Of a stretch of DNA of 64,000 nt, positions 4,307-41,014 are shown in pieces. The position numbers were made by a program, and so were the translations under genes. This stretch comes from an uncultured Acidobacteriota bacterium (lineage in GTDB: Bacteria > Acidobacteriota > JAAYUB01): assembly GCA_964436005.1 (NCBI GenBank), contig CAYTBK010000007.1:1340-65339 (forward strand). The letters are read 5' to 3'. The notes under the pieces are model-generated. The model did not search any database and was not told the origin of the DNA. It saw only the letters and a list, made by a program, of their open reading frames with translations. The first letter of the stretch is position 1. Each line of letters opens with the position of its first letter.

Positions 4307-4399
4307 TCTGCCCTCGCGATAACAATAAAATGAAATTGGAAGCCGACCGTCTGGGCGCCCCGGCCGAGAATGGCTTCCGGCCGACAGGCGGTTACGGTT

Positions 4400-10056: not shown

Positions 10057-10081
10057 AATCGGTTTCCTCCTCGAATCATCG

Positions 10082-11140
10082 TCATGGCTTGGCGAAAACC
10101 CCGCCCTGGTGGATGAAGACGTCCCGGAGAAAGACGGCGGCGTCCTCCGGAGGGGTGGGGTTGATGAAAAAGCCGGTCCCCCACTCGAACCCCGCCACCC
10201 GGGTCAGGCGCGGGAAGATTTCGATGTGCCAGTGGAAGTCCCACTCGACCGTGTCCCAGTAGTAGGAGCGCTTGGGCAGCGAGTGCACGTTCGGCACGGT
10301 GTGGAGCATCATGTTGTAGGCCACGTCCTTGAGCCCGAGCTTCAGTCGCAGCAGGGAGTCCTTGAGGATCGTGGCCAGGTCCACGATGGCGCGCTGGTCC
10401 ATGAGCGCGAAGCTGTGCGAATGGAAGCGCGGCATGATGGTCATTTCGAAGGGGAACCGGGAGGCGTAGGGGAGAAAGGAGACGAAGTTGTCGTTGGTCG
10501 TGATGATCCGGTCCTGGCGGTCCAGTTCGAAATCAAGGATATCGCAGAAAAGGCAGCGGTTCTTGAGGTGGAAGTGATCCTTGGCGGACTCCAGTTCGGT
10601 GGCCACCACCTTGGGGGTCACCGGGGTGGCGATGATCTGGGAATGCGGGTGGGCCAGGGAAGCGCCGGCCGCGGCGCCGTGGTTCCGGAAGACGAGGATG
10701 TAGCGGAACCGGTGGTCCTGGCTGAGGTCCAGCCAGCGCAGGCGGTAGGTCTCCACGATGCGGGCGATGTGCTCGACGGGCATGTCGGCCATGTCCAGGT
10801 CATGCGCCGGCGTTTCGATGACCACCTCGTGCGCGCCCACCCCCCGCATGCGGTCGTACGGTCCCAGGGCGCGTTTGTCGAGCTGCCCTTCAATCATCAA
10901 GGCGGGATAGAGATTCGGCACGACCCGGATGTCCCAGCCCGGCGCGTTCCGGTAGGAGCCGGGGTGGCGCAGGGCCATGATCTCCATGGGGGTCCGGTCC
11001 TCGTGTTCGGGGCAGAAGGGACAGAAGCCCTCCTTCTTTTCCGTTTCCCGGGCGATCTGGAAATCGCGCGGGCGCTTCCCCCTTTCAGCCGAGATGACGA
11101 CCCACTGCTTCTGGATGGGATCCTGGCGGAGTTCGGACAT
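10082..11140 (-). CDS. galT: Galactose-1-phosphate uridylyltransferase family (HIT-like nucleotidyltransferase)
   Basis: MSELRQDP, RGKRP, CPFCP, GAHEVVIETP, FRNHGAAAGASLAHPHSQ (HxH active site), FHWHIEIFPRL. Confidence 0.9.
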   Translation of the reverse strand: MSELRQDPIQKQWVVISAERGKRPRDFQIARETEKKEGFCPFCPEHEDRTPMEIMALRHPGSYRNAPGWDIRVVPNLYPALMIEGQLDKRALGPYDRMRGVGAHEVVIETPAHDLDMADMPVEHIARIVETYRLRWLDLSQDHRFRYILVFRNHGAAAGASLAHPHSQIIATPVTPKVVATELESAKDHFHLKNRCLFCDILDFELDRQDRIITTNDNFVSFLPYASRFPFEMTIMPRFHSHSFALMDQRAIVDLATILKDSLLRLKLGLKDVAYNMMLHTVPNVHSLPKRSYYWDTVEWDFHWHIEIFPRLTRVAGFEWGTGFFINPTPPEDAAVFLRDVFIHQGGVFAKP

Positions 11141-11152
11141 GGCGGGCTGACC

Positions 11153-13204
11153 TCAGGATTCCCGCTGCAGGGAAGTGAGCCGGAGCTGCATGGTGCAACG
11201 GTTTTCCCCCCGGGAGAGCGGCAGGAAGAACCAGAGCCCCAGCCCCTGGAATGTTTTCTCCATGGTGTCGATGGAGAGGGAGACGCTCTCCACCGGGAAG
11301 TGCCGCACGGCCACGGGGCTGGAGAAAGTGAAATCGACGAGGAAGCCGTCCCGCCGGTCTTCCAGGGTGACGCCGTCGGTCCTGTCCCAGCCGCCGTCCC
11401 GGGCGAGCCCGCGGGCCTCGATCCGCCGGAAAACGGGGTAAATGCACTTGGCCGGGTCGTCTCCCCCGGACAGGCCGAGGGTCCACTCGATGCCCAGGAA
11501 GCCTTCCGTTTCGGTGAGGAGGTGGTACACGACTTCCAGCATGGGGGCGGCCGGCGTGGGGTAGTAGCGCTTTTTCAGCACGGCTCCGTCCACCTTCGCG
11601 ACCAGCGGGATGCCGGTGGGGGAGGCCTCCGCGAGTTCGAAAGCCTGGCGCCGGAAGTCGAGCGCGGGCCGGGCGGTTTCGATCCGCAGCGCCGGGGCTT
11701 CCGGCAGCGCGTCGAAGACCGCCTCCCGACAGGACCAGCGCGGGCCGTCGTCGAAAACGAGGTGGGAGAAGTCCAGGCCCGGCGAGGAGTCGTCACCGTC
11801 CGTGCGGACAACCCGGGACGAGGCCGCCGTGAGGTGGTACTTTTCCTTCCAGCGGGCCAGGGTGGACAGAAGGTTGAAGGCGGCCGGCTTGAAGGAGAGC
11901 TCCAGGAGGGCGCCCCCCTGGGCGGGGGAGACCACGGCGGTGTAGTCGGTGTGGCGGATGATCGCCTCGTCGTGCCGGTCGAGATCGAAGTCCTCCCACT
12001 GGATGGCCGTTTCCGGCTCGTCGCCGCTGAGGGCTTCCAGCTCCGTCTCCGCCCGCAGGATGTTTTTCCAGGCCTCGTGACGGAGGTGCGGCAGGTAGAG
12101 CCCCCCGAACACGCCGTGCCAGAACACGTCGTTGGACTGGGCCCGGAGGAGGTGGTCGTATGCCTCGGTCCGGCGGGTGGTTTCGCTGAACGCGCGCGAA
12201 ACCATGAGCATGCGTTTGTGCATGTAGTTGCTTTCCGGGTATTTGACGAGGAAATTCCGCCAGATGCCCCCCTGCAGGAACGGTTTGATCTGGGGGAACG
12301 TTCCTTCCCTCTCGAAGCGGGCTTTCCACTCCTCGAACCGCCTGGCGCTCTCCGGCGGCAGCGACCACTGGCCCATCTCGATGTAGGAGGCCACCGGCAG
12401 GGCCGCCCGCCCCAACGGCTGGCGGGTGTCCCAGTACTCTTTCAGCGTCGTCGTCCGGACCGTGTCCTGGCTGTCTTCCAGCATGGAGAAGAAATCTTCC
12501 AGCCACCGCCGGTTGTAGACCCAGTCGTACGTTTTCGGCCAGGCGCCGAATTTCTCCGCGTCGTCCAGGGTGACCGCCAGTTCGCGGCCTTCGGCCTGCA
12601 TGCGCTGGAAGGCTTCCCGGACCTTGGGGACCTCCGCCCAGGGGGTCAGGTACCGCATCTGCTCGCTGATGGGGAAAACGCTCACCGCGGCGTCGAGCTC
12701 CTCGACCATGAAGTAGCCGTCGATGTCTTCCGGCAGCAGGCCCGAGGAGAAGAAGTGGTAGTCGTCCAGGCAGACGTAGCTCACGTTGGCCGCGGCCAGG
12801 TCGCCCACCAGGCCGGGTTCCCAGACCCGCTCGGCCAGCCAGGCCCCGGTAGGGCGAACCCCGAAGAGGTTCTGCACTTCCGCGGAGAGGCGGAGGATCT
12901 GCTCCTGCCGGTCCGCCGGGGGGATGACGGGGAATATCGGCTCGTACAACCCCCCGGTGAGGATCTCCAGGCGCCCGGCCTCGACGAGGCCCTTGAGCAT
13001 GGAGATGTATTCCGCGTGTTTCTCCTGCAGCCATCGCAGGAGGAAGCCGGTGCAGTGCCAGACCATCTTCAGGGAGCGGTGCCGCTCGAAGCAGGTCATG
13101 AACGGCCCGTAGGCGTTGCGGAAGGATTCCTCCAAAACGTGTTCGAAGTTGCCCACGGGCTGGTGCAGGTGTATGCCGAGGATGAGATTGACAGGCGGGT
13201 TCAT
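11153..13204 (-). CDS. GH57 4-alpha-glucanotransferase / alpha-amylase (with DUF1925/DUF1926-like C-terminus)
   Basis: Start MNPPVNL at 13204. HLHQP, GAWLAERVWE (nucleophile Glu), DDAEKFGAW (acid/base Asp), AQSNDVFWHGVFGGLYLPHLR. Confidence 0.88.
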   Translation of the reverse strand: MNPPVNLILGIHLHQPVGNFEHVLEESFRNAYGPFMTCFERHRSLKMVWHCTGFLLRWLQEKHAEYISMLKGLVEAGRLEILTGGLYEPIFPVIPPADRQEQILRLSAEVQNLFGVRPTGAWLAERVWEPGLVGDLAAANVSYVCLDDYHFFSSGLLPEDIDGYFMVEELDAAVSVFPISEQMRYLTPWAEVPKVREAFQRMQAEGRELAVTLDDAEKFGAWPKTYDWVYNRRWLEDFFSMLEDSQDTVRTTTLKEYWDTRQPLGRAALPVASYIEMGQWSLPPESARRFEEWKARFEREGTFPQIKPFLQGGIWRNFLVKYPESNYMHKRMLMVSRAFSETTRRTEAYDHLLRAQSNDVFWHGVFGGLYLPHLRHEAWKNILRAETELEALSGDEPETAIQWEDFDLDRHDEAIIRHTDYTAVVSPAQGGALLELSFKPAAFNLLSTLARWKEKYHLTAASSRVVRTDGDDSSPGLDFSHLVFDDGPRWSCREAVFDALPEAPALRIETARPALDFRRQAFELAEASPTGIPLVAKVDGAVLKKRYYPTPAAPMLEVVYHLLTETEGFLGIEWTLGLSGGDDPAKCIYPVFRRIEARGLARDGGWDRTDGVTLEDRRDGFLVDFTFSSPVAVRHFPVESVSLSIDTMEKTFQGLGLWFFLPLSRGENRCTMQLRLTSLQRES

Positions 13205-13242
13205 TCTTTGGTCCTCCCTCGCGGTGGATGGCGGCGGTGGTC

Positions 13243-15477
13243 TCAGACGACCCAGTAGTATTTTTCCAGGTCGTCGATGGCGATCTTCTGGGACAGGTAC
13301 CCGTCGTGGGGCATCTGTTCGGCCAGGTTGTTCCCGATGTAGATGCGAAGCCCGAACTCGAGGCCCTGGTTCTCTTTGGCGCCGATGTCGGCGAAGGGGA
13401 CGCCCAGTTCGACGATGCGGTTCACGCCGACCAGGCTCACCGGGCGCACTTCGACCTCCCGATTCTCGCCGTCCAGCCGGACGCGCTCGTACTTGATCTT
13501 CCCGGCCGCGACGTCGTTGACCATCCGGAAGAAGACGTTGCCCGGTTTCCGGAAGACGACGTCCACCCGGAAGGGGTACTTGCGGTCGTGGAGGATGGCG
13601 TTGTCCACGTCGAGGCGGATGTAGAGGTTGTCGTGGTCGAAGCCGAACCAGAAACCGCTGAAGATGCGGTGGACCTGCTGCATGGTGACGAAACTGTACT
13701 GGTTGGAGAAATAGCCCGCCGCCAGCCACTCGAAGTAGTCGGTGATGTTACCGTCGAGCGTGGGCGTGATGAGCTCGAAAGGTCGCTGGAAGCGGAACCG
13801 CCCCGTTTTCTGAATGATGGGGCGGAAGAACTCCTGGGGCGGCTCGAAGCCCATGCGCCGCCAGGCCATCTGCAGGTGGCTGCGGAAAAGCTGGTCGAAC
13901 TCCCGGTCGTACTCGGAGAAATGGTCTTCGCCGTACCACCAGAACCAGTCGCTTCCTTCGGCCGCCATGATGGCCTGGTGGGCCTCCTGGAGCCTGTCCA
14001 CTTCGTCGGCGCCGCCTTCCAGCCGGCGTTCCTCGTATTTCTTCCGGGTGCTGGCCAGCAGGTCCCAGGCTTTGTTCTTCTCCGGATGGCCGATCCAGGT
14101 GGAGAAGGTCCCCGATATCCACGATCCCGCCCGGATCCTCGGCAGGTCCTGCGGAGGCGGCGCCATGGCGGCATACTCCGAAAACGTGCAGGCCCGGAGG
14201 TGGGGCGACTCCTGCAGCTTCCCGTACAGGGAGCGCAGGAAGCGCACGCCGTTTTCGGGGTAGTATTCCCAGGCGTTCTCCCCGTCCAGGATGATGGGAA
14301 CGGCGAAGGGGCGCCCGTCGTTGGGCAAAAGTTTCCGAATCAGCAGGAGTCGGCTGGTCAGGTCCTCCGCCGCGGCTTCCCCGTCATAGGTGGAGTAGGT
14401 GAAACCGATCATGTCGGAGAGCAGGTGGTCCCGGAAGAACACCCGCAGCGGGCCGGCGCTCGTGTTGTGCGCGTAGTCGCCGTAGCGTGCCTCGGCCGGC
14501 GGGGCGCTCCCCTCGTCCAGCAAACCCGAGCGGAGGAGAGACGCCTGCAGGATCTCCTCGTCGGTGGCGATCCATTCGATGCCCGCTTCCCGGATGAAGG
14601 GCAGGATCTCTTCCGAGACGGACCCCTCGGACGGCCACATGCCCTTGGGCGGCCGGCCGAAGCTGCGCTCGAACAGCCGCACGGCCTCCTCCACGTGCCA
14701 CCGCACGTCTTCGGCGTAATGAAAGTCGTGCAGGGGCAGTTCCATGTTGGGGATGGCTTCCCGGGCGGAGTTGATGTTGCAGACCAGGGGCAGGATCGGG
14801 TGGAAATAGGGGGAGGTGGACAGCTCGATGCGCCCCCCCTCGTAGGCGGACTTGTACGCCGGCAGGATTTCCCCCATGAAGGCCCGGTGCATGGTGAAGA
14901 CCCCCTCCTTGTTTTCCTCGGAGAAGTTGCGGCCGGCCCGGATGAGGGGCTCCACTTCCGGGCGGGCCTTGAGCACCTCGCCCGACCAGGCCAGGTTGTA
15001 CCATACCTGGAGATCGCGGAAGTCCTGCTCGGTGAAGTGCTCCGCCTTCTGGCGCAGCTGTTCGGGCTCCACGACGTACCCGCGCTTTTCGAAAAGTTCC
15101 TTGTAGCGGGGGTAGGGCTGGATCATGTTGTCGAAGTTCAGGGAAAAGAAATTCTTCAGCAGGAAGACCTTGTCGTCCGGTGAGAGCTGGGCGGCGGCCT
15201 TGCGGGATATCTGGAGGAAGTGGTCCTCGGCCCCGTTCTCCGTGTAGTCCCGGAGCTGGTCCAGGAGAGAGGGCACGAGGTTGAAGGTGACGTGCACGTC
15301 CGGAAAATCCTCCAGGATTTTCAGCATGTCGAAATAGTCCTTCACCGCGTGCAGCCGCACCCAGGGCAGCAGGTAATCGGGCGAGTCGGGCTCGCGGTAG
15401 ACGGGCTGATGCATGTGCCACAGGATGAGGACATACAGCGGATCGTTCTGCTTGGAGGGGATCGGGGTCATACGCAT
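13243..15477 (-). CDS. GH57 glycoside hydrolase, amylopullulanase-like
   Basis: Start MRMTPIP at 15477 after GGAGG. WHMHQP, WVRLHAVKDY, GMWPSEGSVS, ILDGENAWEYY, AEGSDWFWW. Confidence 0.88.
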   Translation of the reverse strand: MRMTPIPSKQNDPLYVLILWHMHQPVYREPDSPDYLLPWVRLHAVKDYFDMLKILEDFPDVHVTFNLVPSLLDQLRDYTENGAEDHFLQISRKAAAQLSPDDKVFLLKNFFSLNFDNMIQPYPRYKELFEKRGYVVEPEQLRQKAEHFTEQDFRDLQVWYNLAWSGEVLKARPEVEPLIRAGRNFSEENKEGVFTMHRAFMGEILPAYKSAYEGGRIELSTSPYFHPILPLVCNINSAREAIPNMELPLHDFHYAEDVRWHVEEAVRLFERSFGRPPKGMWPSEGSVSEEILPFIREAGIEWIATDEEILQASLLRSGLLDEGSAPPAEARYGDYAHNTSAGPLRVFFRDHLLSDMIGFTYSTYDGEAAAEDLTSRLLLIRKLLPNDGRPFAVPIILDGENAWEYYPENGVRFLRSLYGKLQESPHLRACTFSEYAAMAPPPQDLPRIRAGSWISGTFSTWIGHPEKNKAWDLLASTRKKYEERRLEGGADEVDRLQEAHQAIMAAEGSDWFWWYGEDHFSEYDREFDQLFRSHLQMAWRRMGFEPPQEFFRPIIQKTGRFRFQRPFELITPTLDGNITDYFEWLAAGYFSNQYSFVTMQQVHRIFSGFWFGFDHDNLYIRLDVDNAILHDRKYPFRVDVVFRKPGNVFFRMVNDVAAGKIKYERVRLDGENREVEVRPVSLVGVNRIVELGVPFADIGAKENQGLEFGLRIYIGNNLAEQMPHDGYLSQKIAIDDLEKYYWVV

Positions 15478-15649
15478 TCTTCCTCCTGGCTGTTTCCGCG
15501 GGCGTCTCCGCGGGCTGTCGGCCGAACCGCCCGCCCGGTCCCGGGTGATGCCCTTCGCGACGGGCGACTCTTCGCGTGCGTCCCGCCGAACCGAGCGGAT
15601 GCCCGGCAGGATGATCGCGCCAAGTGGGGCCATGCCCAAGTTTGAACCT

Positions 15650-20935: not shown

Positions 20936-21682
20936 TCACCGGCCCGCGCTGCGCATGGCTGCCAGGAGGGAGGCGGCCCGCCTGGCCAGCGGGGCGTTCT
21001 CCCCGCGGACGACCTTCTCCAGCAGGGCGGTGGCCCGGGCCGTGTCCTGCAGGCGCACGAGGACGTTGGCCAGGTACCAGCCGATTTCCGGTCGGCCGGC
21101 CGCTTCGGGGATCGCCGCAACGGTTTCCAGGTAGGCGCGGGCCGATTCGTAGCGACCGGTCAGGTAGGCCGCGACCCCGCAGTAAAAGCGCGTCCGCCAA
21201 TCCTGGGGGTGCCTGTCGAGCCACTGGCCGCCGCGCTCGAGGAAGGCGGCATACTCGGCCCGCGCATAGACTTCCATCACGGCTTCGAGTTCGCCGTCGG
21301 CGGGGGGCGGGCCGCCGCGGTTGACCGACGACACCCAGGCGAAGGGGGCGTCTTCCAGTTCCGCCGCGATGGCCGGGGCCAGGGGCGAGGTCAGTCGGGA
21401 CTTGAGAACGTACAGCCCGGCCAGTGCCGCCACCAGGATGGAGGCGGCGACGGCCAGCGCGACGGTCAGGCGGCGTGTCCCGGAACGGCCCTTGTCCGCC
21501 GGGAAAAAGTCGGCCGGCAGGGCCTGCTCGATTTCCGGGCGGAGCGCCTTGGCCGCCAGGATTTCCTGGAGGGTGCGCGAACACGCGCGGCAGTGGTCGA
21601 GATGGTCCAGCGTCTCCTCCATTTCGGCGCCGGACAGGTTGCCGTTGACGAATTCGAGCAATCGGGCGCTGTCACATTCCAT
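20936..21682 (-). CDS. Anti-sigma factor: zinc-binding ZAS domain, transmembrane helix, TPR-like C-terminus
   Basis: HLDHCRAC (HxxxCxxC), hydrophobic span LTVALAVAASILVAALAGLYVL, TPR-like FYCGVAAYLTG and WYLANVL; directly downstream of the ECF sigma gene. Confidence 0.8.
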   Translation of the reverse strand: MECDSARLLEFVNGNLSGAEMEETLDHLDHCRACSRTLQEILAAKALRPEIEQALPADFFPADKGRSGTRRLTVALAVAASILVAALAGLYVLKSRLTSPLAPAIAAELEDAPFAWVSSVNRGGPPPADGELEAVMEVYARAEYAAFLERGGQWLDRHPQDWRTRFYCGVAAYLTGRYESARAYLETVAAIPEAAGRPEIGWYLANVLVRLQDTARATALLEKVVRGENAPLARRAASLLAAMRSAGR

Positions 21683-21736
21683 GTTCGCCTGCCCCCTGCC
21701 TGGGAATAGCGCCAGGGACTCCTGGCCTTCGAACGC

Positions 21737-22300
21737 TTACCATTTTTTCCACTCCTCACGGAGGTCTTCGCTGAGGCTGCGCAGCGATTCCAGGGCGTTC
21801 CGCATTCTCGAATGGACCGTGCTGACGGGCATCCGCTTGCGCCGGCCGATTTCCTTGAGGGACAGGGGCGGTTCCCGGAAGAAGGTCCATTGCAACAGCT
21901 GCCGCTGGAAGGGCGGCAGCTGCTCCATCCGCTTGACCAGACCGGCCACGGCCTTCTCCTTCGCCTCCTCTGCCTGGCGGACCATGAAGCAGCCTTCCGG
22001 GTCTTCCTCCCCCGGCCTGGACAGGCTCTCGATCCTCTCGTCGTCCTCCGTCTCGACTTTCCGCAGGGAAGTCCGCCGGCGGATGCGGTCGATGCAGGAA
22101 TTGGTGAGCATCCGGCAGAAGAACCGCATCGCCTCTTCCTTGTCGCTGGGCACCGCCCGCGCGTCCAGAAACTTCCGGCAGGCCTCCTGGAAGCAATCCT
22201 CCGCCTGTTCCTCGTCGCCCACGTATTTGTGGGCGACGCGCAGGAACATCCGCCGTCGTTCCGCTACGATCTTCTCGAGTGCGGCATGGGGGGAAGGCAC
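21737..22300 (-). CDS. ECF-type RNA polymerase sigma factor
   Basis: Region 2 (AEDCFQE, LTNSCIDRIRRR) and region 4 (LPPFQRQ, SLKEIG, TVHSRMRNALESLR); 187 aa. Confidence 0.88.
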   Translation of the reverse strand: MPSPHAALEKIVAERRRMFLRVAHKYVGDEEQAEDCFQEACRKFLDARAVPSDKEEAMRFFCRMLTNSCIDRIRRRTSLRKVETEDDERIESLSRPGEEDPEGCFMVRQAEEAKEKAVAGLVKRMEQLPPFQRQLLQWTFFREPPLSLKEIGRRKRMPVSTVHSRMRNALESLRSLSEDLREEWKKW

Positions 22301-27436: not shown

Positions 27437-28738
27437 TTGAAAAGAAACCAGGGGGTGCATGTCGACGCGGTGGAGCCCGAGTCGCCCGCGGAGTTCATGG
27501 GCATCGAGCCCGGTGACATTTGCTTGAAGGTGAACGGCCAGGAAGTGGAGGATTTCCTGGACGTCAACTTCCATTTCCAGGACGGCGAGGAGAATGTCCT
27601 GCTTTTCGCCAAAAGGGACGGCGCACTTTGGGAGGCCGAGGTGGAGCTCGACGAGGGCGAGGAACTGGGAATCGCCTGGGCTGACATCCCTCCCCGTCTA
27701 TGCCGGAACCGGTGCCAGTTCTGTTTCGTCGACCAACTGCCCCGCGGCGTTCGTCCCACGCTGAGAATCAAGGACGAGGATTACCGGCACTCCTTCCTCT
27801 ACGGCAATTTCATCACGCTGTCCAACCTCACGGATCACGACGTCAGGAGGATCGTCGCCCAGCGCCTGTCCCCTCTGTACGTCTCCGTGCACGCCACGGA
27901 CCAGTCGGTGCGCCGGGCGTTGACGGGCAGTCGCCCGGCGGACCGCTTCGATACGCTGTTCGGCCGCCTGGTGGAGGGGGGGATCCGTCTGCATACCCAG
28001 GTCGTCCTCTGCCCGGGCCTCAACGACGGAGACGTTTTCCTGCGCACCGTGGCGGATCTGGCGGCCCGGCGGCCTCAGGTGCTGTCGGTGGGCGTCGTGC
28101 CGGTGGGCCTCACCGCCCATCGCCAAGGCCTGGCGGAGCTGGAGCGGGTGGATGCCGCCAAGTCCCGGGAGGTGCTGCAGGTCGTTCACCGCCTGCAGGA
28201 ATCATTCCGGAAAGGCAGGACGGGGCGTTTCGTTTTCGCCGCCGACGAGTTCTACCTGCTGGCCGGGGAGGAGATCCCGCCGGCCAAGGCCTACGAGGGC
28301 TATCCCCAACTGGAGAACGGCGTCGGAATGGTCCGCGACTTTCTCGAGGAGTTCGCCCCTCTTCTCAAGCGGAAGCGCCCGTCCTGGGCCGGCCGCCGGG
28401 CCGTCTTCGCCACCGGAAGCTCCTTCGCCCCCGTGCTGCGGGGCTGCCTGGAGCGCTTCAACGAAGTTCACGGAGCGTTCCTGGAAGTGCTGGAAGTGCC
28501 CAACCGCTTTCTCGGCCCCAGCGTCACCGTGGCCGGCCTGCTCTCGGGAGGGGATTTCCTCGAGGCGGCCCGGGGGCGGGACGTCGGTGAATTCCTGGCT
28601 ATCCCCGCGTCATGCCTGAACATGGACGGTGTTTTCCTGGACGATTCCACGCCGGAAGAACTGCAACAGAGGCTCAACCTGCCCCTCCTTTCGTTTCACC
28701 CTTCCGCCCAGGGCTTCGACGCCGTGCTGAACGGCTGA
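27437..28738 (+). CDS. DUF512 family radical-SAM-like Fe-S protein with N-terminal PDZ-like domain
   Basis: CRNRCQFCFVDQLP (CxxxCxxC), KDEDYRHSFLYGNFITLSNL, SPLYVSVHAT, HTQVVLCPGLNDG, QLENGVG. Confidence 0.88.
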   Translation: MKRNQGVHVDAVEPESPAEFMGIEPGDICLKVNGQEVEDFLDVNFHFQDGEENVLLFAKRDGALWEAEVELDEGEELGIAWADIPPRLCRNRCQFCFVDQLPRGVRPTLRIKDEDYRHSFLYGNFITLSNLTDHDVRRIVAQRLSPLYVSVHATDQSVRRALTGSRPADRFDTLFGRLVEGGIRLHTQVVLCPGLNDGDVFLRTVADLAARRPQVLSVGVVPVGLTAHRQGLAELERVDAAKSREVLQVVHRLQESFRKGRTGRFVFAADEFYLLAGEEIPPAKAYEGYPQLENGVGMVRDFLEEFAPLLKRKRPSWAGRRAVFATGSSFAPVLRGCLERFNEVHGAFLEVLEVPNRFLGPSVTVAGLLSGGDFLEAARGRDVGEFLAIPASCLNMDGVFLDDSTPEELQQRLNLPLLSFHPSAQGFDAVLNG

Positions 28739-28900
28739 AAGGCCGGCGGCGGCAGGCGCCACGGACACCGGGAGAATCCCCGACCCATCCCCGGCATCCA
28801 ATCGTCAGCCTCCGGCGAATTACGGGGCGTTCGCTTCGGCCGCCCCATTCGGACTTCGGGTGGAAAGGATTAGAATATGCTTGCAAAAATGAGGAAATAC

Positions 28901-29068
28901 ATGAAAGACATCCTGATCGTCCTCCTGATCCTCTTCGCCTGGTTCGCCCTGCAGAAGTGGATTCTGCCCCGCTTGGGCGTTCCCACCTGAATGTCCGACT
29001 CCTGCGATCTCGGGTCACGGGATCATCATCAGAAGAAGAATCCTCCTGCCGGCAAAGACGCTCTCTGA
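28901..29068 (+). CDS. Small single-TM protein, candidate selenoprotein with in-frame TGA at 28988-28990 (not in the ORF track)
   Basis: MKDILIVLLILFAWFALQKWILPRLGVPT-TGA-MSDSCDLGSRDHHQKKNPPAGKDAL*. GAGGA RBS at 28891-28895, TAGAAT -10 at 28871-28876, hairpin at 29000-29022. Confidence 0.6.
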
Positions 29069-29242
29069 TTCCACAAGCGTCCGCCGCCTCCGGGAAAACG
29101 GAAAACGTTGCGGCCTCTGGCCGCCTGGCACCCGCGGGGTAAAACCCGGGTGCGGAATCTGCGTACACATGCGCGAGTGGCGGCATCTTCCGGCGAAGAC
29201 CACTTTTTCGCGCTCCTTCTTTCATCTTCCCCGGTTAACAGG

Positions 29243-29248
29243 TATAAT
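29243..29248 (+). promoter_or_regulatory. Consensus -10 box TATAAT upstream of the ctpA-like gene
   Basis: Exact TATAAT about 30 nt before the ATG at 29278; -35 region weak. Confidence 0.5.
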
Positions 29249-29277
29249 GCCGCTTTATCTTCGGTCGGAGGCTGATC

Positions 29278-30546
29278 ATGCAGCGGTGGATGAAAGGGGT
29301 GTACAGCGTGTCGTCAGTGCTGGTTCTCTTCCTGATTTGCGGGTTTGTCTGGAACAGCTTTGCCGCCGAAGATGAAGATTACAAGAACCTCATCGTCTTC
29401 AGTGAGGTGATCCGGAAAGTCCAGGATTCCTATGTTGAGAAACCGGACATCCGGAAACTGACCGTCGGCGCGCTGCGCGGCCTGGCTTACGGAGTGGATG
29501 CGTTTTCGTGCTACCTGACACCGGAGGAGCGGCGACTCGTGGAAGCGCGCAAGGGCGAAACCGGCATCACCGGCGTGGTCATCACGCCCCGCAGCGGGTT
29601 CTACCGCATAATGGCGGTGATTCCCGGTTCTTCTGCCGACAAGGCCGGACTTTTCCCGGGCGATCTCGTGGAAGAAATCGAGCGCAAGGGGACGAGCGAG
29701 ATGCCGCCCCCCTGCGTGCAGGCCGCTTTGGCCGGGCCTGTGGGCTCGGAAGTGCGGTTGGGCATCCAGCGGGGGCAGTCGGAAGAACTGAAAGAGGTCG
29801 TTCTGAAGCGGACGACCCCCATCGCCCAGGTACCGGAGTACAAGATCCTGGAACCGGGGATCGGCCTGTTGAAGATCCGGGAGTTTTCCCCCGGCGTCGC
29901 CGAGGACGTGAAGCGAGCGCTCAACGCCATGTCGAACAGCGGGGTGAAGAGCCTGGTGCTGGATCTGCGCGACAACTGCAGCGGCAGTTATCCGGAAGCC
30001 TTGGAGACGGCCAACCTGTTCGTCGGCTCCGGGAATCTCGCCCTACTGAAGGTTCGCGGGCAGGATGCCGCCCCTGCGCCGGTCCCCGCCAAGGCCGAGA
30101 AACTCCTTTTCCCCGGCGCCCTGGTGGTGATGGCCAACGGCTTCACTTCCGGCCCGGCCGAAGTCGTCGCCGGGGCCATCAAGGATTCGGGCCGCGGAAA
30201 GATTGTCGGGTTGAAGACGTACGGGACCGCTTCCGAGCAGAAGGACCTGGTCCTCCCGGACAGCGCCGTCATGCGGCTCACCACGGTGCGCTACCTGACC
30301 CCTTCCGGAACGGCCATCACCAACGAGAAGACCAACCTGGCGGGAATCAAGCCGGACTTGAAGTCTCCGCCCGAGGATTTCGCCCTCTCGCTGTATATCG
30401 ATTACGACATGGCGACCGGAGAGGAATCGGCGCCCCTTTACCGGAAATACGTGGACAGCGTCTACGCGAAGCAGCTCGAACAGGCGCTGGAACTGCTGAA
30501 GAACCCACAAATGGACCTGAAGGCCGAGGTCGTGCCGGCTGAATAG
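29278..30546 (+). CDS. S41/CtpA-like PDZ protein, predicted catalytically inactive
   Basis: YVEKPD, PDZ (AGLFPGDLV), IREF, LVLDLRDN. The SASE and TFGKG motifs read TSGPAE and TYGTA. Confidence 0.85.
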   Translation: MQRWMKGVYSVSSVLVLFLICGFVWNSFAAEDEDYKNLIVFSEVIRKVQDSYVEKPDIRKLTVGALRGLAYGVDAFSCYLTPEERRLVEARKGETGITGVVITPRSGFYRIMAVIPGSSADKAGLFPGDLVEEIERKGTSEMPPPCVQAALAGPVGSEVRLGIQRGQSEELKEVVLKRTTPIAQVPEYKILEPGIGLLKIREFSPGVAEDVKRALNAMSNSGVKSLVLDLRDNCSGSYPEALETANLFVGSGNLALLKVRGQDAAPAPVPAKAEKLLFPGALVVMANGFTSGPAEVVAGAIKDSGRGKIVGLKTYGTASEQKDLVLPDSAVMRLTTVRYLTPSGTAITNEKTNLAGIKPDLKSPPEDFALSLYIDYDMATGEESAPLYRKYVDSVYAKQLEQALELLKNPQMDLKAEVVPAE

Positions 30547-35490: not shown

Positions 35491-36207
35491 TCAGTAGAGC
35501 TTGATCTCGTAGCGACACCCCTTCTCGCCGCGCTCTGCCTGGACCAGGCGAGGGCGCACGTTGGCCATGCGCGAAAGGTACCCGGCCAGGTAGTTGTAGA
35601 AAAGCACGCACAGTTCCTGGCCCAGGGGGATGTTTTCCTTTCCGCACAGGTCGCGGACGAAGCACTTGCCGACGTCGATGGTCAGATGGTCGCCCGCCGC
35701 GGCAAAGGTGAGATCCCAGGTGGGGGCGAACTGCTCGCGGGCCAGGTCCAGCACCTCGGCGAAGTCCTTGGGCTGGCGGTAGCGGGGCAGTTGGCCCGCC
35801 AGCGTCCGGCCCGCCATGGTCCCCACGGCCGGCAGGCCGCCGCCGAGAGTCTGCTTGAAGACGGAGGCCACGGACAGGAGCCGCACCCCCAGGTCGTTCA
35901 GCGCCGATTTCAGTTCGGCCTCGTCGGACATCACCCGCTGGTGCGTCTTCTCCTCCCCCAGCAGGCGGGTGGCCAGGTCCAGGGCGTAGGGGTCGTGGTA
36001 GAAGTTCTCCGAATGAACCACCTCGCCGTGATCGATGGCCCCGGCCGGGCAGATCTCCGAACAGCTCAGGCAGCCGAAGCACTCGAGGGGTTTCGCTACT
36101 GTCGGCACCCGCTTTTCTTCGTCGAAGGCGAAGACGCCGGTCCGGCAGGTCTCCACGCACAGCGTGCAGCCCACGCAGGCTTTTTCGTCGATCTGGATGG
36201 AAACCAT
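35491..36207 (-). CDS. 2[4Fe-4S] ferredoxin fused to a V4R-like C-terminal domain
   Basis: CVGCTLCVETC and CFGCLSCSEICP. The C-terminal CFVRDLC...LC...YLAG...GCRYEI pattern resembles the V4R fold. Confidence 0.8.
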   Translation of the reverse strand: MVSIQIDEKACVGCTLCVETCRTGVFAFDEEKRVPTVAKPLECFGCLSCSEICPAGAIDHGEVVHSENFYHDPYALDLATRLLGEEKTHQRVMSDEAELKSALNDLGVRLLSVASVFKQTLGGGLPAVGTMAGRTLAGQLPRYRQPKDFAEVLDLAREQFAPTWDLTFAAAGDHLTIDVGKCFVRDLCGKENIPLGQELCVLFYNYLAGYLSRMANVRPRLVQAERGEKGCRYEIKLY

Positions 36208-36210
36208 GCG

Positions 36211-37608
36211 TCACCTCCTGCCGATGCGGCGGACCGTCTCGCCGCGGCGCCGGACGACCACTTCCAGGGGCATCCGCCCCAGGGCGTGCGTGGCGCAGGC
36301 CAGGCACGGGTCGAAGCACCGTATGACGAACTCGAGTCCGTTGAGGAAGCCTTCGTCGGAATGGCGGCCGTACAGGGACTGGGCCGCCGCCGTCACGGCC
36401 CCGTCGATGGCGTCGTAGTTGTTCTGCGTGGCCACCACCAGGTTGGCGGCGGTCAGCCGGCCGGCCGCATCGGCCGTGTAGTCGTGGACCAGGATGCCGC
36501 GCGGCGCCTCGATCAGCCCGATGTACCGGCCGGCCCGCGGGGCGGGGTCGGCGGTCTTGACGGGGCCGCCGCCGAGCTGCTTCGGGATCTCGGCCATCCT
36601 CTCGGCGCAGTGAACCATCTCGATCAGGCGGGCCGCGATGAAGTCTACCACGGACACCTTCTCCCGGATTTTTGTCCGGAAGGCCTGCAGCAGGCTGTCC
36701 GCCTTCGGCGTGCCCAAACTGTCGTTGGCCTGCAGCCGGGCCAGGGGGCCGACCAGCTGGAGGCGGTCCTCCAGGCCGCGGATGCGAACCGACTTCATGT
36801 ACGATCCCGGCATGACGGATTCCACGATGTTCTCGCCGTACGCCGAGGCGGGGAAGGTCTTCAGCCGGGCCCCGCCCGTGTCGACGACCCGGACTTCGCC
36901 GTGCAGGAAGTCCACCCGGCCGTCCTGGGAAACCGCCATGTTCAGGAAGGGCAGCTCGGTGGACTGGCGGATCTCTTCCACGGACTCCAGGCGGGAACGC
37001 ACCACTTCGCCCAGGTCTTCCAGCAGGGTGAGGGCTTCCTCTCCCCAGGCACCGATGCGGGACATCCGGTCCTCGGGCGGGCGGTACGACATGCCGCCGG
37101 GCACGGCCGTCACCGGGTGGACGCCGCGCCCGCCGACGGCCTCCACGGTGAGCTGGCCGAGAGTCCTCAGCCGGAGCGCTTTTTTGGCGGCTTCCGGGTT
37201 CGCCTGCAAAAGCCCGAACACGTTGCGGTCGGCGGAGGGCGATTCGATGCCCAGGATCAGGTCCGGGCCGAGCAGGAAAAAGGTGCTCAGGGCGTGGGAG
37301 TGGAGGATGTGCCCGGCGTACAGGAGGTCGCGCAGCAGCCGGGCGTCCGGCGGAACCTCGACGCCCAGGCCGTTCTCGATGGCCTCGACGGAGACCAGGT
37401 GGTGGGCGGCCGGGCAGACGCCGCAGATACGGGCCGTGAACTGGGGCATCTTGAAGAGTTCCATCTTCTCGATGAACTTCTCGAAACCGCGGATTTCCAT
37501 CACCTGGAGGTGGGCTTTCTCCACGGCCCCCGCGTCGTTCACGTCCAGCAGGACCTTGGCGTGGCCTTCGATCCGGGTGACGGGAGTGAGCGTGATCCGT
37601 TTTCCCAT
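36211..37608 (-). CDS. mvhA: [NiFe]-hydrogenase large subunit, group 3c (MvhA)-like
   Basis: TRIEGH, L1 RICGVCPAAH, EAPRGILVHDY, L2 DPCLACATH followed by a 24-aa cleavable extension (ALGRMPLE...). Confidence 0.92.
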   Translation of the reverse strand: MGKRITLTPVTRIEGHAKVLLDVNDAGAVEKAHLQVMEIRGFEKFIEKMELFKMPQFTARICGVCPAAHHLVSVEAIENGLGVEVPPDARLLRDLLYAGHILHSHALSTFFLLGPDLILGIESPSADRNVFGLLQANPEAAKKALRLRTLGQLTVEAVGGRGVHPVTAVPGGMSYRPPEDRMSRIGAWGEEALTLLEDLGEVVRSRLESVEEIRQSTELPFLNMAVSQDGRVDFLHGEVRVVDTGGARLKTFPASAYGENIVESVMPGSYMKSVRIRGLEDRLQLVGPLARLQANDSLGTPKADSLLQAFRTKIREKVSVVDFIAARLIEMVHCAERMAEIPKQLGGGPVKTADPAPRAGRYIGLIEAPRGILVHDYTADAAGRLTAANLVVATQNNYDAIDGAVTAAAQSLYGRHSDEGFLNGLEFVIRCFDPCLACATHALGRMPLEVVVRRRGETVRRIGRR

Positions 37609-37620
37609 GGTTGTTCTCCT

Positions 37621-38553
37621 CTATCCTGCCGTTTCGGGCTGCGTCGGGGCGGTCCACTCGCGCAGCTCGACGGCGGGCTTGCGGTACATGACGGGGGAAG
37701 CCATCGCATAGGCGTAGAACGTCTTGGCGTCTTCCTCGATGTAGCGCCTGACCTCCTCGGCGGGGATTCCACAGAGCATCTCCATCCGTTTGGCCACCAG
37801 GGTCCGGATGTCCAGGTGCGGTTCGGCCACGACGTCGGCCGAGGGGCCGTTGCATCCCGTGCAGGCGACGCCGACTTCCGGGCAGGGGGCCAGGCAGCGA
37901 TTGAGGGTGACCGAACCCAGGCAGACCACGCCCTGGCTCAGGAAGCACTTCTCCGGATCGGGGGCCGTGACCGCGCCCCGGCGAAGGGGCGTTCCCGGGC
38001 TCTTCACCATCTTCCGCCGGCAGTCGGAGCAGACCGGTTTGCCGGTGGAAACGGCGTCCTTGTTCCCCAGGAACCGCCGGACGATGGTGGCGATGAAAGC
38101 GGGATGCGGCGGGCAGCCGGGCAGGAAGGCGTCCACGGGAACCAACTCGTCGATGGGGACGACGCTCTTCTCCAGCGGCACGGCGTCGGCGTCCGGGCGT
38201 TGCCCCGGCACGTTGGTCGGCCCCTGCGAATAGGCGGTATCCAGCACCTGGTCCTTTTCGTACAGCCAGCCCAGGCCCGACGGCCCGCCGTAGACGGCGC
38301 AGGAACCGAAGGCCACCAGCGTCTTGACGCTGGCCCGGAGCCGGCGGAGCATCTCCCGGTCGTGCTCGCTGCGGACGGCGCCCTCCACGATGCCCAGGTC
38401 GGCCTCGGGGAAGCCCTTTTCGTCCATCAGGACGGGAAGCCGGACGAAGACCACGTCTTCCACCAAGGCCAGAAGTTTCTCGTGCAGGTCTACCATCGCC
38501 ACATGGCAGCCGGAGCAGCCCGACAGCCATTCCGTCGAGATTCTGGCTTTCAT
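37621..38553 (-). CDS. mvhG: [NiFe]-hydrogenase small subunit, MvhG-like (cytoplasmic)
   Basis: Start MKARISTEWLSGCSGC at 38553 (ATGA overlap). VEGAV, FGSCA, PGCPP, plus extra Cys clusters CSDC, CFLSQGVVCLG and RCLAPC...CTGC. No Tat signal. Confidence 0.9.
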   Translation of the reverse strand: MKARISTEWLSGCSGCHVAMVDLHEKLLALVEDVVFVRLPVLMDEKGFPEADLGIVEGAVRSEHDREMLRRLRASVKTLVAFGSCAVYGGPSGLGWLYEKDQVLDTAYSQGPTNVPGQRPDADAVPLEKSVVPIDELVPVDAFLPGCPPHPAFIATIVRRFLGNKDAVSTGKPVCSDCRRKMVKSPGTPLRRGAVTAPDPEKCFLSQGVVCLGSVTLNRCLAPCPEVGVACTGCNGPSADVVAEPHLDIRTLVAKRMEMLCGIPAEEVRRYIEEDAKTFYAYAMASPVMYRKPAVELREWTAPTQPETAG

Positions 38554-39038
38554 GATTTCTCCTCCCAGGTCATTTCCTTCAGGCAGGCGTTGGGGCCGGC
38601 CTGGATGATCTCCAGGCCCACCTTGTGCCCGGGGAAGATCTTCTCCATGGCGCCGGCGAAGACGCCATGGGCCATCTGGCACAGGGAGAGCTTCTGCTCG
38701 TGGGCGAAGCGGAACAGGGCGTTCCGGATCATGCAGGTTCGGAAGACCACGCGCATCTTCCTCGTCCCGCCATCCACCTGCACCAGTTCGGCGCTCTCTC
38801 CCTGGAAAGGCTCGAAGTCCCACCGGATACCCCTCTCGGCCAGTGCGGCGCGCAACAGCTTCAGGGCCTCGACGGGGTCGGCGGTGGGCGCGACGTTCTT
38901 GACCGCCTCCAGGCCGAACTTCTTGCCCGCGTTGAAGCTGATGGACATGCAGCCGCGCCCCAGGTGCTTTTCCGCACCGTGGGCCAGGGCGCCCAGGAAA
39001 TAGGAGACGTCGTGCAATTCTTTCCGCAACGGTTCCAT
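38550..39038 (-). CDS. Stand-alone V4R-like domain protein
   Basis: Start MEPLRK at 39038. CMIRN...LCQMAHGVFAG...GPNACLKE matches the Cys spacing of the ferredoxin-fused domain. Confidence 0.7.
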   Translation of the reverse strand: MEPLRKELHDVSYFLGALAHGAEKHLGRGCMSISFNAGKKFGLEAVKNVAPTADPVEALKLLRAALAERGIRWDFEPFQGESAELVQVDGGTRKMRVVFRTCMIRNALFRFAHEQKLSLCQMAHGVFAGAMEKIFPGHKVGLEIIQAGPNACLKEMTWEEKS

Positions 39039-39147
39039 ACATCCCCCTGCTGACGTGTTTGGCGTCCACCGCCGCAAACGGGGTCCGCGGGCGGCCGACG
39101 GGATCTTGGATTCAGGAGACCTCGGGCGTGACGCCGGCGGCGGGACG

Positions 39148-39510
39148 CTACATGGCCCGCTCGATCTCGGCCGAGCGCTTGCGGAGCTGGTACCGGATGT
39201 TGCCCAGGTTGGCGCCGGGCGCCGCCACCACGGCCAGGATCGAATCCGTTCCCAGCAGCGAGATGACGATGATGCCGTCCTTGTACTCGAACAGCCCCTG
39301 GGTGAGCTGGCCGATCCCCAGTTCCTGGCCGACCACCTCCGACGAACCGACGCCCGTCGAGATGACCGCGCCGACGGCGTCGGCGTCGACTTTCCCCCCC
39401 CGGGATACCGCCTCGATGACGAAACCGTCCCGGCTGACCAGCACGGCCGTATTGATGCCTTCCACGATAATCAGTTCCTTGAGCAGGTCCGTCAGCGTCA
39501 TGATGCTCAT
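39148..39510 (-). CDS. Roadblock/LC7 (MglB-like) protein
   Basis: 120 aa; EGINTAVLVSRDGFVIE, LFEYKDG, LAVVAAPGANLGNIRY. Confidence 0.88.
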   Translation of the reverse strand: MSIMTLTDLLKELIIVEGINTAVLVSRDGFVIEAVSRGGKVDADAVGAVISTGVGSSEVVGQELGIGQLTQGLFEYKDGIIVISLLGTDSILAVVAAPGANLGNIRYQLRKRSAEIERAM

Positions 39511-39514
39511 GTTG

Positions 39515-40957
39515 TCAAACCTCCACCTTGTCTATGGTATTCAGGATTCTTGTCAAGAGGGCGCCGGCCTGGGGCGCCCCTTCCATCCGTTCGGCCGGGA
39601 TGGTGGTCGTTGCGCCGGTGGCCAGGACGAAAAGGGGGATATCCAGGGAAGAGACATGGGTGCGGAAGTCTTCGAGGTGGCGCTCGTCTTCCGGGCCGGC
39701 CACGGCGAAGATCGTCGCGTCGGTGGTGCCGAGCATGCGGTCCCAGAGGAAAGAGAACCGTTTGTCGCCCCGGATGGAGAAGAGATGGAAGACCCGGTCC
39801 GACCAGGCCAGCTTGAGGAAGCTCATCCCGCCCATGGTCGCTCCCCGCGGGGCTTCCAGGCCGCAGGCGCCGGCCAGGGTCTGCAGCACCACCCGGCAGT
39901 CCTCCTCGCGTACGCAGGCCACCAGCAGGCGGACGGGGCGGACCGGCAGTTGCAGGATGTCGTTCCCGACCTGGGGCTCGATGTGCCCTTTCCGCACCAG
40001 TTTGGCCACGGTGACCGCCACGCGGGACTGGGAAAGACGGGTCGTCTCCTGGATTTCGGGAAGGTTGACCTTGCCCTTCCGGATGGCCCGGATCACCGCC
40101 GTGGTGTCGGGGTCGTCCTGCCCGTCGGGAACGCTGTTCAGCTTCAGCGGCTGGATGTCGGCGGGAACGAATTCCTGGCTGTCTTGCCTCTCGTCGTAGA
40201 GTCGGATGGTGTCCATCAGCATGAAGCTGATGGGTTTGGCGATGGCTCCCTCGGGCACGGCCCCGGGGGAGAACCGGAAATGCCCCTCCCGCAGGGCGAG
40301 CATCTCCATCAGGGCGTCTTCGCCCGTGATGTCGCGGAAGACGGCGTCCATCAGCATGGGGCTGCGCACCGTCAGCTTGCCATCGGCGTCTTTCGTCCGG
40401 ATGTGGAGAATCCCTTCCCGCATGGTGTAGTCGAGGAACTGGAGGATGTCCATCAGCGACACCTCTTCCAGGTATCCGCCCAGCGCCTCTTCCCTCGGCC
40501 GCCGCGAAAGTTTGCGGGTCAGGGACTCCAGCCGGGCGACCAGTTCGTCCGGGTCGAAGGGCTTGGGCAGGTAATCGTCCGCCCCCGAGCGGAGGCCGGT
40601 CACCCGGTCCCGGGCCGTGCCCAGGGCGGAGAGGAAGAGGAAAGGCGTGTCGCGGAACCCGTTCATGGCGCGGAAGGCCTTGCAGAAATCCAGCCCGCTC
40701 ATGCCGGGCATCATGATGTCCGAAACCACGATGTCGGGTTCCGCCTGTCGCGCCGCTTCCAGGCCGGCGTACCCGTCCTTGGCGCAGACGACGCGGCAGG
40801 GCGATCCGCTCAGGCCGCTTTCCAGGATCTGCTCCACCAGGGAGAGGAGCCGGGGGTCGTCGTCCACCACCAGGATCACCCAGGGTTCCTGCTCCGGCCC
40901 GTTCGGCGTCCCGGCCTTGGGGAGTGAGTTGTCCTGCCTGGGTGCTGATTTCGCCAT
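39515..40957 (-). CDS. Response regulator: REC, DUF4388/PATAN, winged HTH, degenerate MglA-like GTPase domain
   Basis: VVDDD...SDIMMPG...LSA...KPF (intact receiver); GYLEEVSLMDILQFL...GEDALMEML...EGHFRF (DUF4388); wHTH-like LPEIQETTRLSQSRVAVTVAKLVRKGHI; LFSIRGDKRFSFLW (G3-like) without a P-loop. Confidence 0.85.
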   Translation of the reverse strand: MAKSAPRQDNSLPKAGTPNGPEQEPWVILVVDDDPRLLSLVEQILESGLSGSPCRVVCAKDGYAGLEAARQAEPDIVVSDIMMPGMSGLDFCKAFRAMNGFRDTPFLFLSALGTARDRVTGLRSGADDYLPKPFDPDELVARLESLTRKLSRRPREEALGGYLEEVSLMDILQFLDYTMREGILHIRTKDADGKLTVRSPMLMDAVFRDITGEDALMEMLALREGHFRFSPGAVPEGAIAKPISFMLMDTIRLYDERQDSQEFVPADIQPLKLNSVPDGQDDPDTTAVIRAIRKGKVNLPEIQETTRLSQSRVAVTVAKLVRKGHIEPQVGNDILQLPVRPVRLLVACVREEDCRVVLQTLAGACGLEAPRGATMGGMSFLKLAWSDRVFHLFSIRGDKRFSFLWDRMLGTTDATIFAVAGPEDERHLEDFRTHVSSLDIPLFVLATGATTTIPAERMEGAPQAGALLTRILNTIDKVEV

Positions 40958-41014
40958 GCGCTTCCTCGACCTGCCGACACCCGTTGCCGTTCCGATCATC
41001 CATGAACTGCTCAC

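Follow-up and report, generated by a model that had tools for sequence, protein, structure and literature searches.

Canonical bacterial selenoprotein genes, such as fdhF of Escherichia coli, contain an in-frame UGA and a stem-loop within the coding region, have homologues with Cys in place of selenocysteine (Sec), and are truncated at the UGA by gene callers (consensus of Zhang and Gladyshev in PMC13188914). These characteristics recur in a small gene carried by contig CAYTBK010000007.1 of an uncultured Acidobacteriota bacterium, of which a stretch of 64 kb (hereafter the window, meaning the whole stretch analysed) was examined. With a probability of roughly 85%, judged from sequence comparisons, positions 28901–29068 of the window encode a 55-residue selenoprotein in which UGA is decoded as Sec, and this protein belongs to a widespread family of approximately 50–60 residues that occurs nearly always in the Sec form. 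The Sec insertion mechanism appears to be ordinary. What appears to be new is the protein family, which is very small and predicted to be membrane-anchored, almost always contains Sec, occurs widely in metagenomes and is consistently mis-annotated. In contrast to the canonical selenoproteins, the window protein is unrelated to the listed families and very short (~55 residues).

SELENOK and SELENOS are small single-pass proteins of the endoplasmic reticulum membrane. Each has a single N-terminal transmembrane (TM) helix and a cytosolic tail that is hydrophilic and disordered, and their Sec is able to pair with a nearby Cys, as in the selenenylsulfide of SELENOS. They resemble the window protein in architecture only and show no sequence relationship with it. 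Unlike in these proteins, Sec in the window protein is located at the membrane surface right after the helix instead of near the C-terminus, and the Sec insertion sequence (SECIS) is intragenic and of the bacterial type. TsoA is a selenoprotein with a LULAXC motif (NF045695; Haft and Tolstoy, 2025, as listed in PMC13188914). It shares with the small family a Cys shortly after Sec, and some family members read …T-U-L-A-D-S-C. However, the spacing is U-x4-C or U-x5-C in the small family and U-x3-C in TsoA, and the residue before Sec is an invariant Thr in the former and Leu in the latter. With the motif T-U-[ML]-x-x-x-C and no NF045695 match at E ≤ 1 among 32 members, the family falls outside TsoA. 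The YgaP-like_TM (PF11127/DUF2892) and MerT/MerF proteins likewise are small, reside in the membrane and have a conserved Cys close to its surface, and a Sec-containing MerT-like family is known (PMC13188914, Table 1). The small family differs from them in having one helix, not two, a different motif and no Pfam match. In particular, no member matched the PF11127 profile hidden Markov model (HMM), and the YgaP-like genes found around the family are neighbours, not homologues.

None of the 32 members compared with Pfam-A 2025 and NCBIfam release 20 (June 2026), the latter holding models for most catalogued selenoprotein families, had a match better than E = 0.03. The motifs of 119 prokaryotic selenoprotein families are given in a 2026 review (PMC13188914), and none of these families resembles a small membrane protein with T-U-x4-C. 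Ten database clusters checked for names carried only "hypothetical protein", and most members are nameless. A literature search for small or membrane bacterial selenoproteins, whose coverage did not extend to the original TsoA report, found nothing. We treat the family as uncatalogued, bearing in mind that short proteins are easily overlooked. Bacterial selenoprotein discovery leans on Cys homologues and on a noticeable length of the open reading frame (ORF). Because the protein is 55 residues long and its relatives are almost all Sec forms, the family would escape both routes. Dozens of public "hypothetical" ORFs of 29–66 residues are probably truncations of genes of this family, which would add a tiny, membrane-anchored kind to the bacterial selenoproteome.

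The elements of the gene in the window are as follows.

28901..29068, forward strand: predicted small selenoprotein gene, 55 residues, with TGA at codon 30 read through (MKDIL…GVPT-U-MSDSC…KDAL).
28891..28895, forward strand: GAGGA, putative ribosome-binding site 5 nt 5' of the ATG at 28901, read from the sequence.
28910..28966, forward strand: predicted TM helix, residues 4–22, from the Kyte-Doolittle maximum and the family core motif.
28988..28990, forward strand: in-frame TGA, predicted Sec codon (U30), based on TGA invariance, homologues with a TGC Cys codon, and database truncations at the TGA.
29003..29005, forward strand: TGC codon of Cys35, predicted partner in the U-x4-C motif; the column is ≥90% conserved, at +5/+6 in all members but one.
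29006..29024, forward strand: hairpin resembling a bacterial SECIS (bSECIS), with GAUCUCG at 29006–29012, loop GGUCA at 29013–29017 and CGGGAUC at 29018–29024 (7 bp).

The 29 codons from the ATG at 28901, read from the sequence and the ORF list, encode MKDILIVLLILFAWFALQKWILPRLGVPT and are followed by the TGA. The frame past it (ATG TCC GAC TCC TGC…) encodes MSDSCDLGSRDHHQKKNPPAGKDAL and closes with a terminal TGA at 29066–29068. An in-frame alternative ATG at 28877 gives a 37-aa ORF (P0001), which is the version called in public gene sets, while MKDIL is the consensus start across the small-protein family. The sequence-only reading that first drew attention to the locus had anticipated that standard callers would truncate the gene, and the public 37-aa call indeed ends at the first TGA, as do nearly all database relatives. 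The TAGAAT (28871–28876), GAGGA, ATG, TGA and continuing frame that it described are all in place, and its selenoprotein interpretation was supported by the comparisons of homologues, frame and hairpin described below. Its proposal of TAGAAT as a -10 promoter box could not be upheld, since a sigma-70 consensus scan gave no promoter at the small gene and TAGAAT has no -35 partner.

The G+C content of the window is 64%. Of its 32 long called genes with a stop, 22 end in TGA. TGA is thus an ordinary stop here and the genetic code is not reassigned. As it is also the commonest stop in the window, a lone in-frame TGA proves nothing, and the signal comes from the relatives. The closest of these is in the Acidobacteria metagenome-assembled genome (MAG) GCA_018001935.1 (locus L083), where MKDILVVLLIVFAWFALQKWILPKLGVPT-TGA-MSQSCDLGSRDQKG… is located directly 3' of a DUF512 gene, with the TGA and the frame as in the window. 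After the TGA, L083 differs from the window by the synonymous changes TCC->TCG and TCA->TCC. In the same locus (7359–7362), the stop of the DUF512 gene overlaps an in-frame ATG (ATGA) nine codons 5' of the MKDIL start. This overlap suggests translational coupling there and makes the true start ambiguous in this lineage; the ATG at 28877 in the window is similar.

Metagenomic contigs were scanned with the patterns WFALQKW and MKDIL[IV]VL, taken from the alignment of the window and L083 peptides, so that codon 30 was not involved in the selection. A total of 47 loci were retrieved. In each of them the aligned codon is TGA, and the frame continues past it with [ML]-x-x-x-C or x5-C. After removal of duplicates, these loci together with L083 and the window gave 41 distinct proteins of 46–79 residues, two of them cut by contig ends. 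Codon 30 is TGA in all 41, whereas the terminal stops are TGA (18), TAG (15) and TAA (6). At this terminal-stop usage the chance of 41 TGA codons would be 1.7e-14 with every sequence counted as independent, and 4e-4 with only ten clades counted as such. Homologues with TAA or TAG at this position, which would have spoken for an ordinary stop, were thus absent. Residues W14, L17, Q18, P23, G26, T29 and U30 are invariant across the family, and F15, L22 and C35 are conserved in ≥90% of the members. Beyond the TGA the frame stays open and is kept across indels, with a near-invariant Cys at +5 (sometimes +6), as expected for conservation continuing through the codon. Among 43 distinct sequences, the codon 3' of the TGA is ATG in 29, CTG in 9, CTT in 2, and CTA, AGA and GTC in one each. 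Since this codon is often not ATG, a restarting second ORF does not explain the downstream conservation.

An exhaustive HMMER search with the 37-aa product against 1.84 billion cluster representatives (50% identity; E ≤ 1e-3) retrieved 48 proteins. In 46 of them the match reaches the last residue (…G[VI]PT), i.e. the protein ends at the TGA site. Read-through was confirmed for two of these 46, namely L139 (…LGVPT-TGA-MSGSCDLPVRK…) and L141 (…LGVPT-TGA-MSGACGPRSRP…). The full-length Cys forms P0144 (60 aa; …GIPT-C-MSGSC…) and P0165 (59 aa; …GIPT-C-MSGAC…) were also obtained. In their DNA, the codon aligned with the TGA is TGC, and both are single continuous ORFs. P0144 shares 52% identity with the window read-through product over 50 residues. 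By sequence, P0144/P0165 and the TGA forms are a classical Cys/Sec pair, so that the Cys at position 30 that the sequence-only reading had asked for was found. Unlike in most selenoprotein families, the Sec form outnumbers the Cys form (46 to 2 among the representatives). A word-indexed protein search with the 55-aa read-through peptide returned only the 37-aa ORF of the window itself and missed even relatives that share long exact words. Such an indexed search is unreliable as a negative for so short a protein, because the exhaustive search found 48 representatives.

The published criteria for a bSECIS are a loop of 3–9 nt, an upper stem of 4–16 bp, a G in the first two loop positions, a distance of 16–37 nt from the UGA and an energy of -7.5 kcal/mol or lower (PMC13188914, Fig. 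2A). The hairpin at 29006–29024, which has a spacing of 22 nt between UGA and loop and an energy of -10.2 kcal/mol as a simple hairpin, agrees with every one of them. In a strict contiguous-stem version of these criteria, 24 of the 41 members pass, against 157 of all 1352 TGAs in the window (11.6%). When the members were searched for their best simple hairpin, all clades had one, with a stem of 4–8 pairs and a loop that starts 16–23 nt past the UGA. The small apical loop, with G followed by G/U, and this distance are like those of the canonical bSECIS. The loop is usually of the GGU type, and the commonest loops are GGUC (also GGUCA), AGGU, UGGAU, GUA and CGUGC. The hairpin persists while the peptide that it encodes varies by clade (DLGSRD, QVTS, SVEQ, AVDRR, RVPA, REVDAE and GPRSR).

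Compensatory changes were observed among several members. In the clade of the window, for example, the stem is GAUCUCG/CGGGAUC in the window, GAUCUCGG/CCGGGAUC in L083, UCUUCC/GGAAGA in L139 and AUCUCG/CGAGAU in L096. The window register is shared by L083 and L139, and by L096 only by eye, as the algorithm picked another hairpin there. L090 has CUUGUC/GACAAG and L092 has CCUGUC/GACAGG. In other members the stem reads GUUGCUC/GAGCAAC (L101), CUGCUC/GAGCAG (L106 and L112) or CUUGCUC/GAGCAAG (L117). In L133 (TGA near 1067; hairpin at 1075–1096), the +5 Cys codon has become CGU and its pairing partner has changed from ACA to ACG, so the pairing is kept and the Cys is lost. L133 is the one member without a Cys at +5/+6; it reads U-V-K-D-A-R-Q-V-T-C, with a Cys at +9 instead. 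For the 12 distinct members with 4-nt loops, 90.5% of the cells pair, and five of the seven pairs vary on both sides. Their covariation score is 0.576, compared with 0.199 in shuffles (0 of 500 reach it) and ≤0.126 in slid-partner controls, on rows that were selected for and anchored on a predicted hairpin. Compared with synonymous recodings that keep the G+C content at third codon positions (GC3), the hairpins of the family are more stable (mean z = -1.92; 37 of 41 negative; 44% with p < 0.05).

The sequence-only reading had proposed a bulged 5+4-bp hairpin at 29000–29022, which is the single-sequence minimum free energy fold of the window. In L083, the closest relative, this fold loses its third pair. 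A conserved hairpin with compensatory changes is thus present at the right distance, but in another register, as 29006–29024 is the one kept in relatives. Most likely, it is the 7-bp GATCTCG/CGGGATC stem with the loop GGUCA that is functional. Rfam gave no match at gathering thresholds and only chance snoRNA matches at permissive thresholds. The MAFFT alignment of the 48 nt after the TGA is ungapped and leaves the clades out of structural register, and therefore yields no family-wide consensus fold. A covariance model built from the 4-nt-loop members (R1) was rejected as too sequence-specific, since it recovered only its own two sequence types and L129. In the Cys locus L137 (1252–1300), the GGUC-loop hairpin of its closest Sec relatives (GUUGCUC-GGUC-GAGCAAC) is missing, and a different, nearer hairpin, GUCGGGC-AGUU-GCUCGAC, is found. 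This altered hairpin would fit the loss of a SECIS constraint, as seen in a single sequence.

A single hydrophobic helix is predicted at residues 4–22, where the Kyte-Doolittle profile peaks (19-residue maximum, 2.37); its core in the family is W-F-A-L-Q-K-W-I-L-P. Together with the conserved C35 column, this bears out the single TM helix and the U-x4-C site suggested earlier. Across the family, Lys and Arg residues together average 0.34 on the N-terminal side of the helix and 2.12 in the first twelve positions on its C-terminal side. Owing to this bias, an N-out/C-in orientation is predicted, which would place U30 and C35 at the cytoplasmic face. The motif is followed by a hydrophilic tail with a mean length of 26 residues and without conserved sequence.

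Although the gene neighbourhood differs between family members, several neighbours are found repeatedly. In 14 Sec loci, as well as in the Cys locus L137, the gene immediately upstream encodes a thioredoxin and has the same orientation. A gene for an extracytoplasmic function (ECF) sigma factor is found directly downstream in 11 Sec loci. Of the two Cys loci, L137 carries a gene for a zf-HC2::sigma fusion on its downstream side, and L138 a gene for a small zf-HC2 anti-sigma protein on its upstream side. An ArsR regulator occurs with a metallo-beta-lactamase plus rhodanese protein in L098, L099, L103 and L104, and with a rhodanese-YgaP_TM protein in L141. A YgaP-like_TM gene also adjoins the small gene in L138, a YgaP-like gene is located nearby in L139, and desulfoferrodoxin, rubrerythrin and Usp genes surround the small gene in L139. 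In L141, a 47-aa ORF (MGERRNRSTGVDTIKWLKML…VGCMP; 4306–4449) with the same orientation separates the rhodanese-YgaP_TM gene from the small selenoprotein gene, an arrangement also found in L142. Thioredoxin, zinc-finger anti-sigma/ECF pairs of the RsrA-SigR type and ArsR-rhodanese systems of the YgaV-YgaP type belong to the responses to thiol-oxidative and sulfide/persulfide stress. From these gene neighbourhoods only, we infer a thiol or sulfur redox role; metal or metalloid binding, or sensing for the sigma system, would be alternative roles. The recurrent neighbours suggest a selenium-dependent part of membrane-proximal thiol/sulfur stress defence in anaerobes and sediment bacteria.

In the proposed mechanism, the UGA at 28988–28990 would be decoded in the standard bacterial way by SelB with Sec-tRNA, directed by the intragenic stem-loop at 29006–29024, whose loop GGUCA is 22 nt past the UGA. 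The protein would consist of an N-terminal TM helix, then P-T-U-M-S-x-S-C at the membrane surface, on what is predicted to be the cytoplasmic side, and a short variable hydrophilic tail. Sec30 and Cys35 may form a reversible selenenylsulfide and thus a membrane-tethered redox centre, presumably recycled by thioredoxin, which may act under thiol-oxidative or reactive-sulfur stress. Under selenium limitation, translation would instead yield the truncated TM peptide of 29 residues. A broader proposal, which we offer tentatively and with the odds somewhat against it, is that the family is a widespread, near-obligate Sec-containing bacterial counterpart, in architecture, to SELENOK/SELENOS. It might then serve as a membrane selenenylsulfide relay or sensor that couples thioredoxin to ECF-sigma/zinc-anti-sigma systems and to rhodanese/YgaP reactive-sulfur handling, and would be among the smallest selenoproteins, unseen by annotation in many phyla. 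Given its small size, the whole protein with its Sec-x4-Cys centre is accessible by peptide synthesis and could be a convenient model.

Several explanations without Sec were weighed. The gene-caller annotation corresponds to a plain TM peptide of 29 (or 37) residues that ends at an ordinary TGA, the default stop in a GC-rich genome, with a regulatory RNA hairpin or the start of a 3' untranslated region accounting for the downstream conservation, and the lower GC3 and low conservation of the tail agree with it. We consider it improbable, because the TGA is found in all 41 sequences, including AT-rich members, while 54% of the terminal stops are TAG or TAA. The frame and the Cys are kept after the TGA across indels, and the Cys-codon homologues read straight through; moreover, the hairpin lacks a U-run on its 3' side, and the terminator scan called nothing there. 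The ATG right after the TGA in the window and in 29 of the 43 distinct sequences would also allow two coupled small ORFs (TGA-ATG), one for a membrane peptide of 29 residues and one for a soluble Cys peptide of 25 residues. This arrangement is very hard to reconcile with the other 14 sequences, which have CTG, CTT, CTA, AGA or GTC there, five of them with codons (CTT, CTA, AGA and GTC) that cannot initiate. The Cys forms are single continuous ORFs, and two ORFs would leave the TGA invariance unexplained.

Other explanations accept Sec and assign it another role. The protein could be a true selenoprotein that binds or traffics a soft metal or metalloid (Hg, Cu, As, or selenium/sulfur), like the small membrane Cys-pair proteins of mer operons. 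Membrane-surface Sec/Cys pairs are good soft-metal ligands by established chemistry, ArsR-family regulators adjoin the gene in the five loci named above, and the MerT-like selenoprotein family offers a precedent. However, structural genes of mer, cop or ars systems are missing from the neighbourhoods examined, neighbours of the thioredoxin and ECF/anti-sigma kinds occur more often, and sulfur sensing fits the ArsR neighbours better because rhodanese or persulfide-dioxygenase-like genes accompany them. A metal role is unlikely on balance, though it is the least unlikely of the alternatives considered. The DUF512/Radical_SAM_2 gene directly upstream in the window, together with the L083 overlap of its stop with the upstream ATG of the small ORF, could instead point to a selenium-containing precursor of a ribosomally synthesized and post-translationally modified peptide, similar to a selenobacteriocin, which is modified by the adjacent enzyme of the radical S-adenosylmethionine (SAM) type. 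We give this very little weight, as approximately 45 other loci have different neighbours and the DUF512 linkage is found in two related genomes only. The small-ORF pattern was found in 0 of 85 other loci, 80 of which are DUF512 loci from other phyla. There was no match to TIGR04081 or any other NCBIfam model, and an N-terminal TM helix is atypical as a leader peptide. Membership in the selenobacteriocin/SbtA group itself (TIGR04081, SGUG motif and conserved maturase) was rejected for lack of an HMM match and for the presence of DUF512 at two related loci only.

A number of observations weigh against the selenoprotein assignment. Counted from the window sequence, GC3 drops from 0.90 before the TGA to 0.60 after it, and the tail beyond the TGA is poorly conserved. 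Two Cys forms against 46 Sec forms is an unusual ratio for a selenoprotein family. The L115/L116/L120 clade and some AT-rich members do not reach the strict energy threshold; the members that do not pass are mostly AT-rich ones, with a 6-bp stem that scores -6.1 alone, and one clade with a bulged stem. Taken alone, the window hairpin does not reach significance: it is more stable than synonymous recodings (z = -2.0), but only at p = 0.05, and the window fold is no more stable than dinucleotide shuffles (z = +0.28). The window's own neighbours, the DUF512 and S41 peptidase genes, are not redox genes. ARAGORN found no tRNA genes in the 64-kb window, and hence no tRNA-Sec, and motif searches of the window for SelA, SelB and SelD were empty. 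A window scan revealed no other gene with an in-frame TGA.

With the same program, no tRNA-Sec was found in the flanks of 35 relative loci, and a search of the relatives' flanking DNA for CxxU/UxxC read-throughs gave only noise. Sec use is documented in Acidobacteriota for Occallatibacter riparius (PMC12013277, Table 2), which makes Sec decoding plausible in this genome. The window contains a [NiFe] hydrogenase cluster (35491–39069, reverse strand), Mvh-like by eye, with a ferredoxin-like protein, a large subunit (PF00374) and a small subunit. The large subunit ends in …DPCLACATHA and so belongs to the Cys rather than the Sec type. After the cluster, at 39148–41014, come genes that were identified by eye as roadblock/LC7-like and as encoding a response regulator.

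The features next to the small gene in the window are as follows.

27437..28738, forward strand: DUF512/PDZ radical-SAM-like protein, upstream neighbour, which adjoins the small gene only in the window and L083.
29193..29211, forward strand: terminator-like hairpin followed by a T-rich tail, ~125 nt past the stop of the small gene, identified by consensus match only.
29278..30546, forward strand: S41 (tail-specific) peptidase with a PDZ domain, downstream neighbour, not a conserved partner.

The DUF512 and S41 neighbours of the window are common only to L083. Since the DUF512 gene adjoins the small gene in these two loci only, its linkage is lineage-specific. The best match of the DUF512 protein in the species-representative genome collection has ≤47% identity and comes from other phyla, and its nearest relatives in the large protein database are Acidobacteria MAG proteins with 63% identity. 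The hairpin at 29193–29211 may end the transcript of the small gene ahead of the S41 peptidase gene. A TATAAT box (ggTATAATg) is located at about 29243–29249 on the forward strand, ~30 nt 5' of the peptidase start. With this box before the peptidase gene and the terminator-like hairpin, the small gene and the S41 gene may be separate transcription units.

Approximately 7 kb upstream of the small gene, the reverse strand (20936–22300) encodes an ECF-type sigma factor (21737–22300; Sigma70_r2 and r4) followed by a 248-aa protein. The latter has an N-terminal H-x3-C-x2-C (…LDHLDHCRACSRTL…), a hydrophobic segment and tetratricopeptide (TPR) repeats, and is zinc-finger anti-sigma-like. This ECF/anti-sigma-like pair is of the same kind as the pairs that adjoin the family in other organisms. 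Farther away on the reverse strand, the region 8572–15639 looks by eye like a glycogen/alpha-glucan cluster, in which two large GH57-like proteins accompany a GalT-like uridylyltransferase and a GlgA-like glycogen synthase (MRIVFLAAEMAPLAKVGGLADV…).

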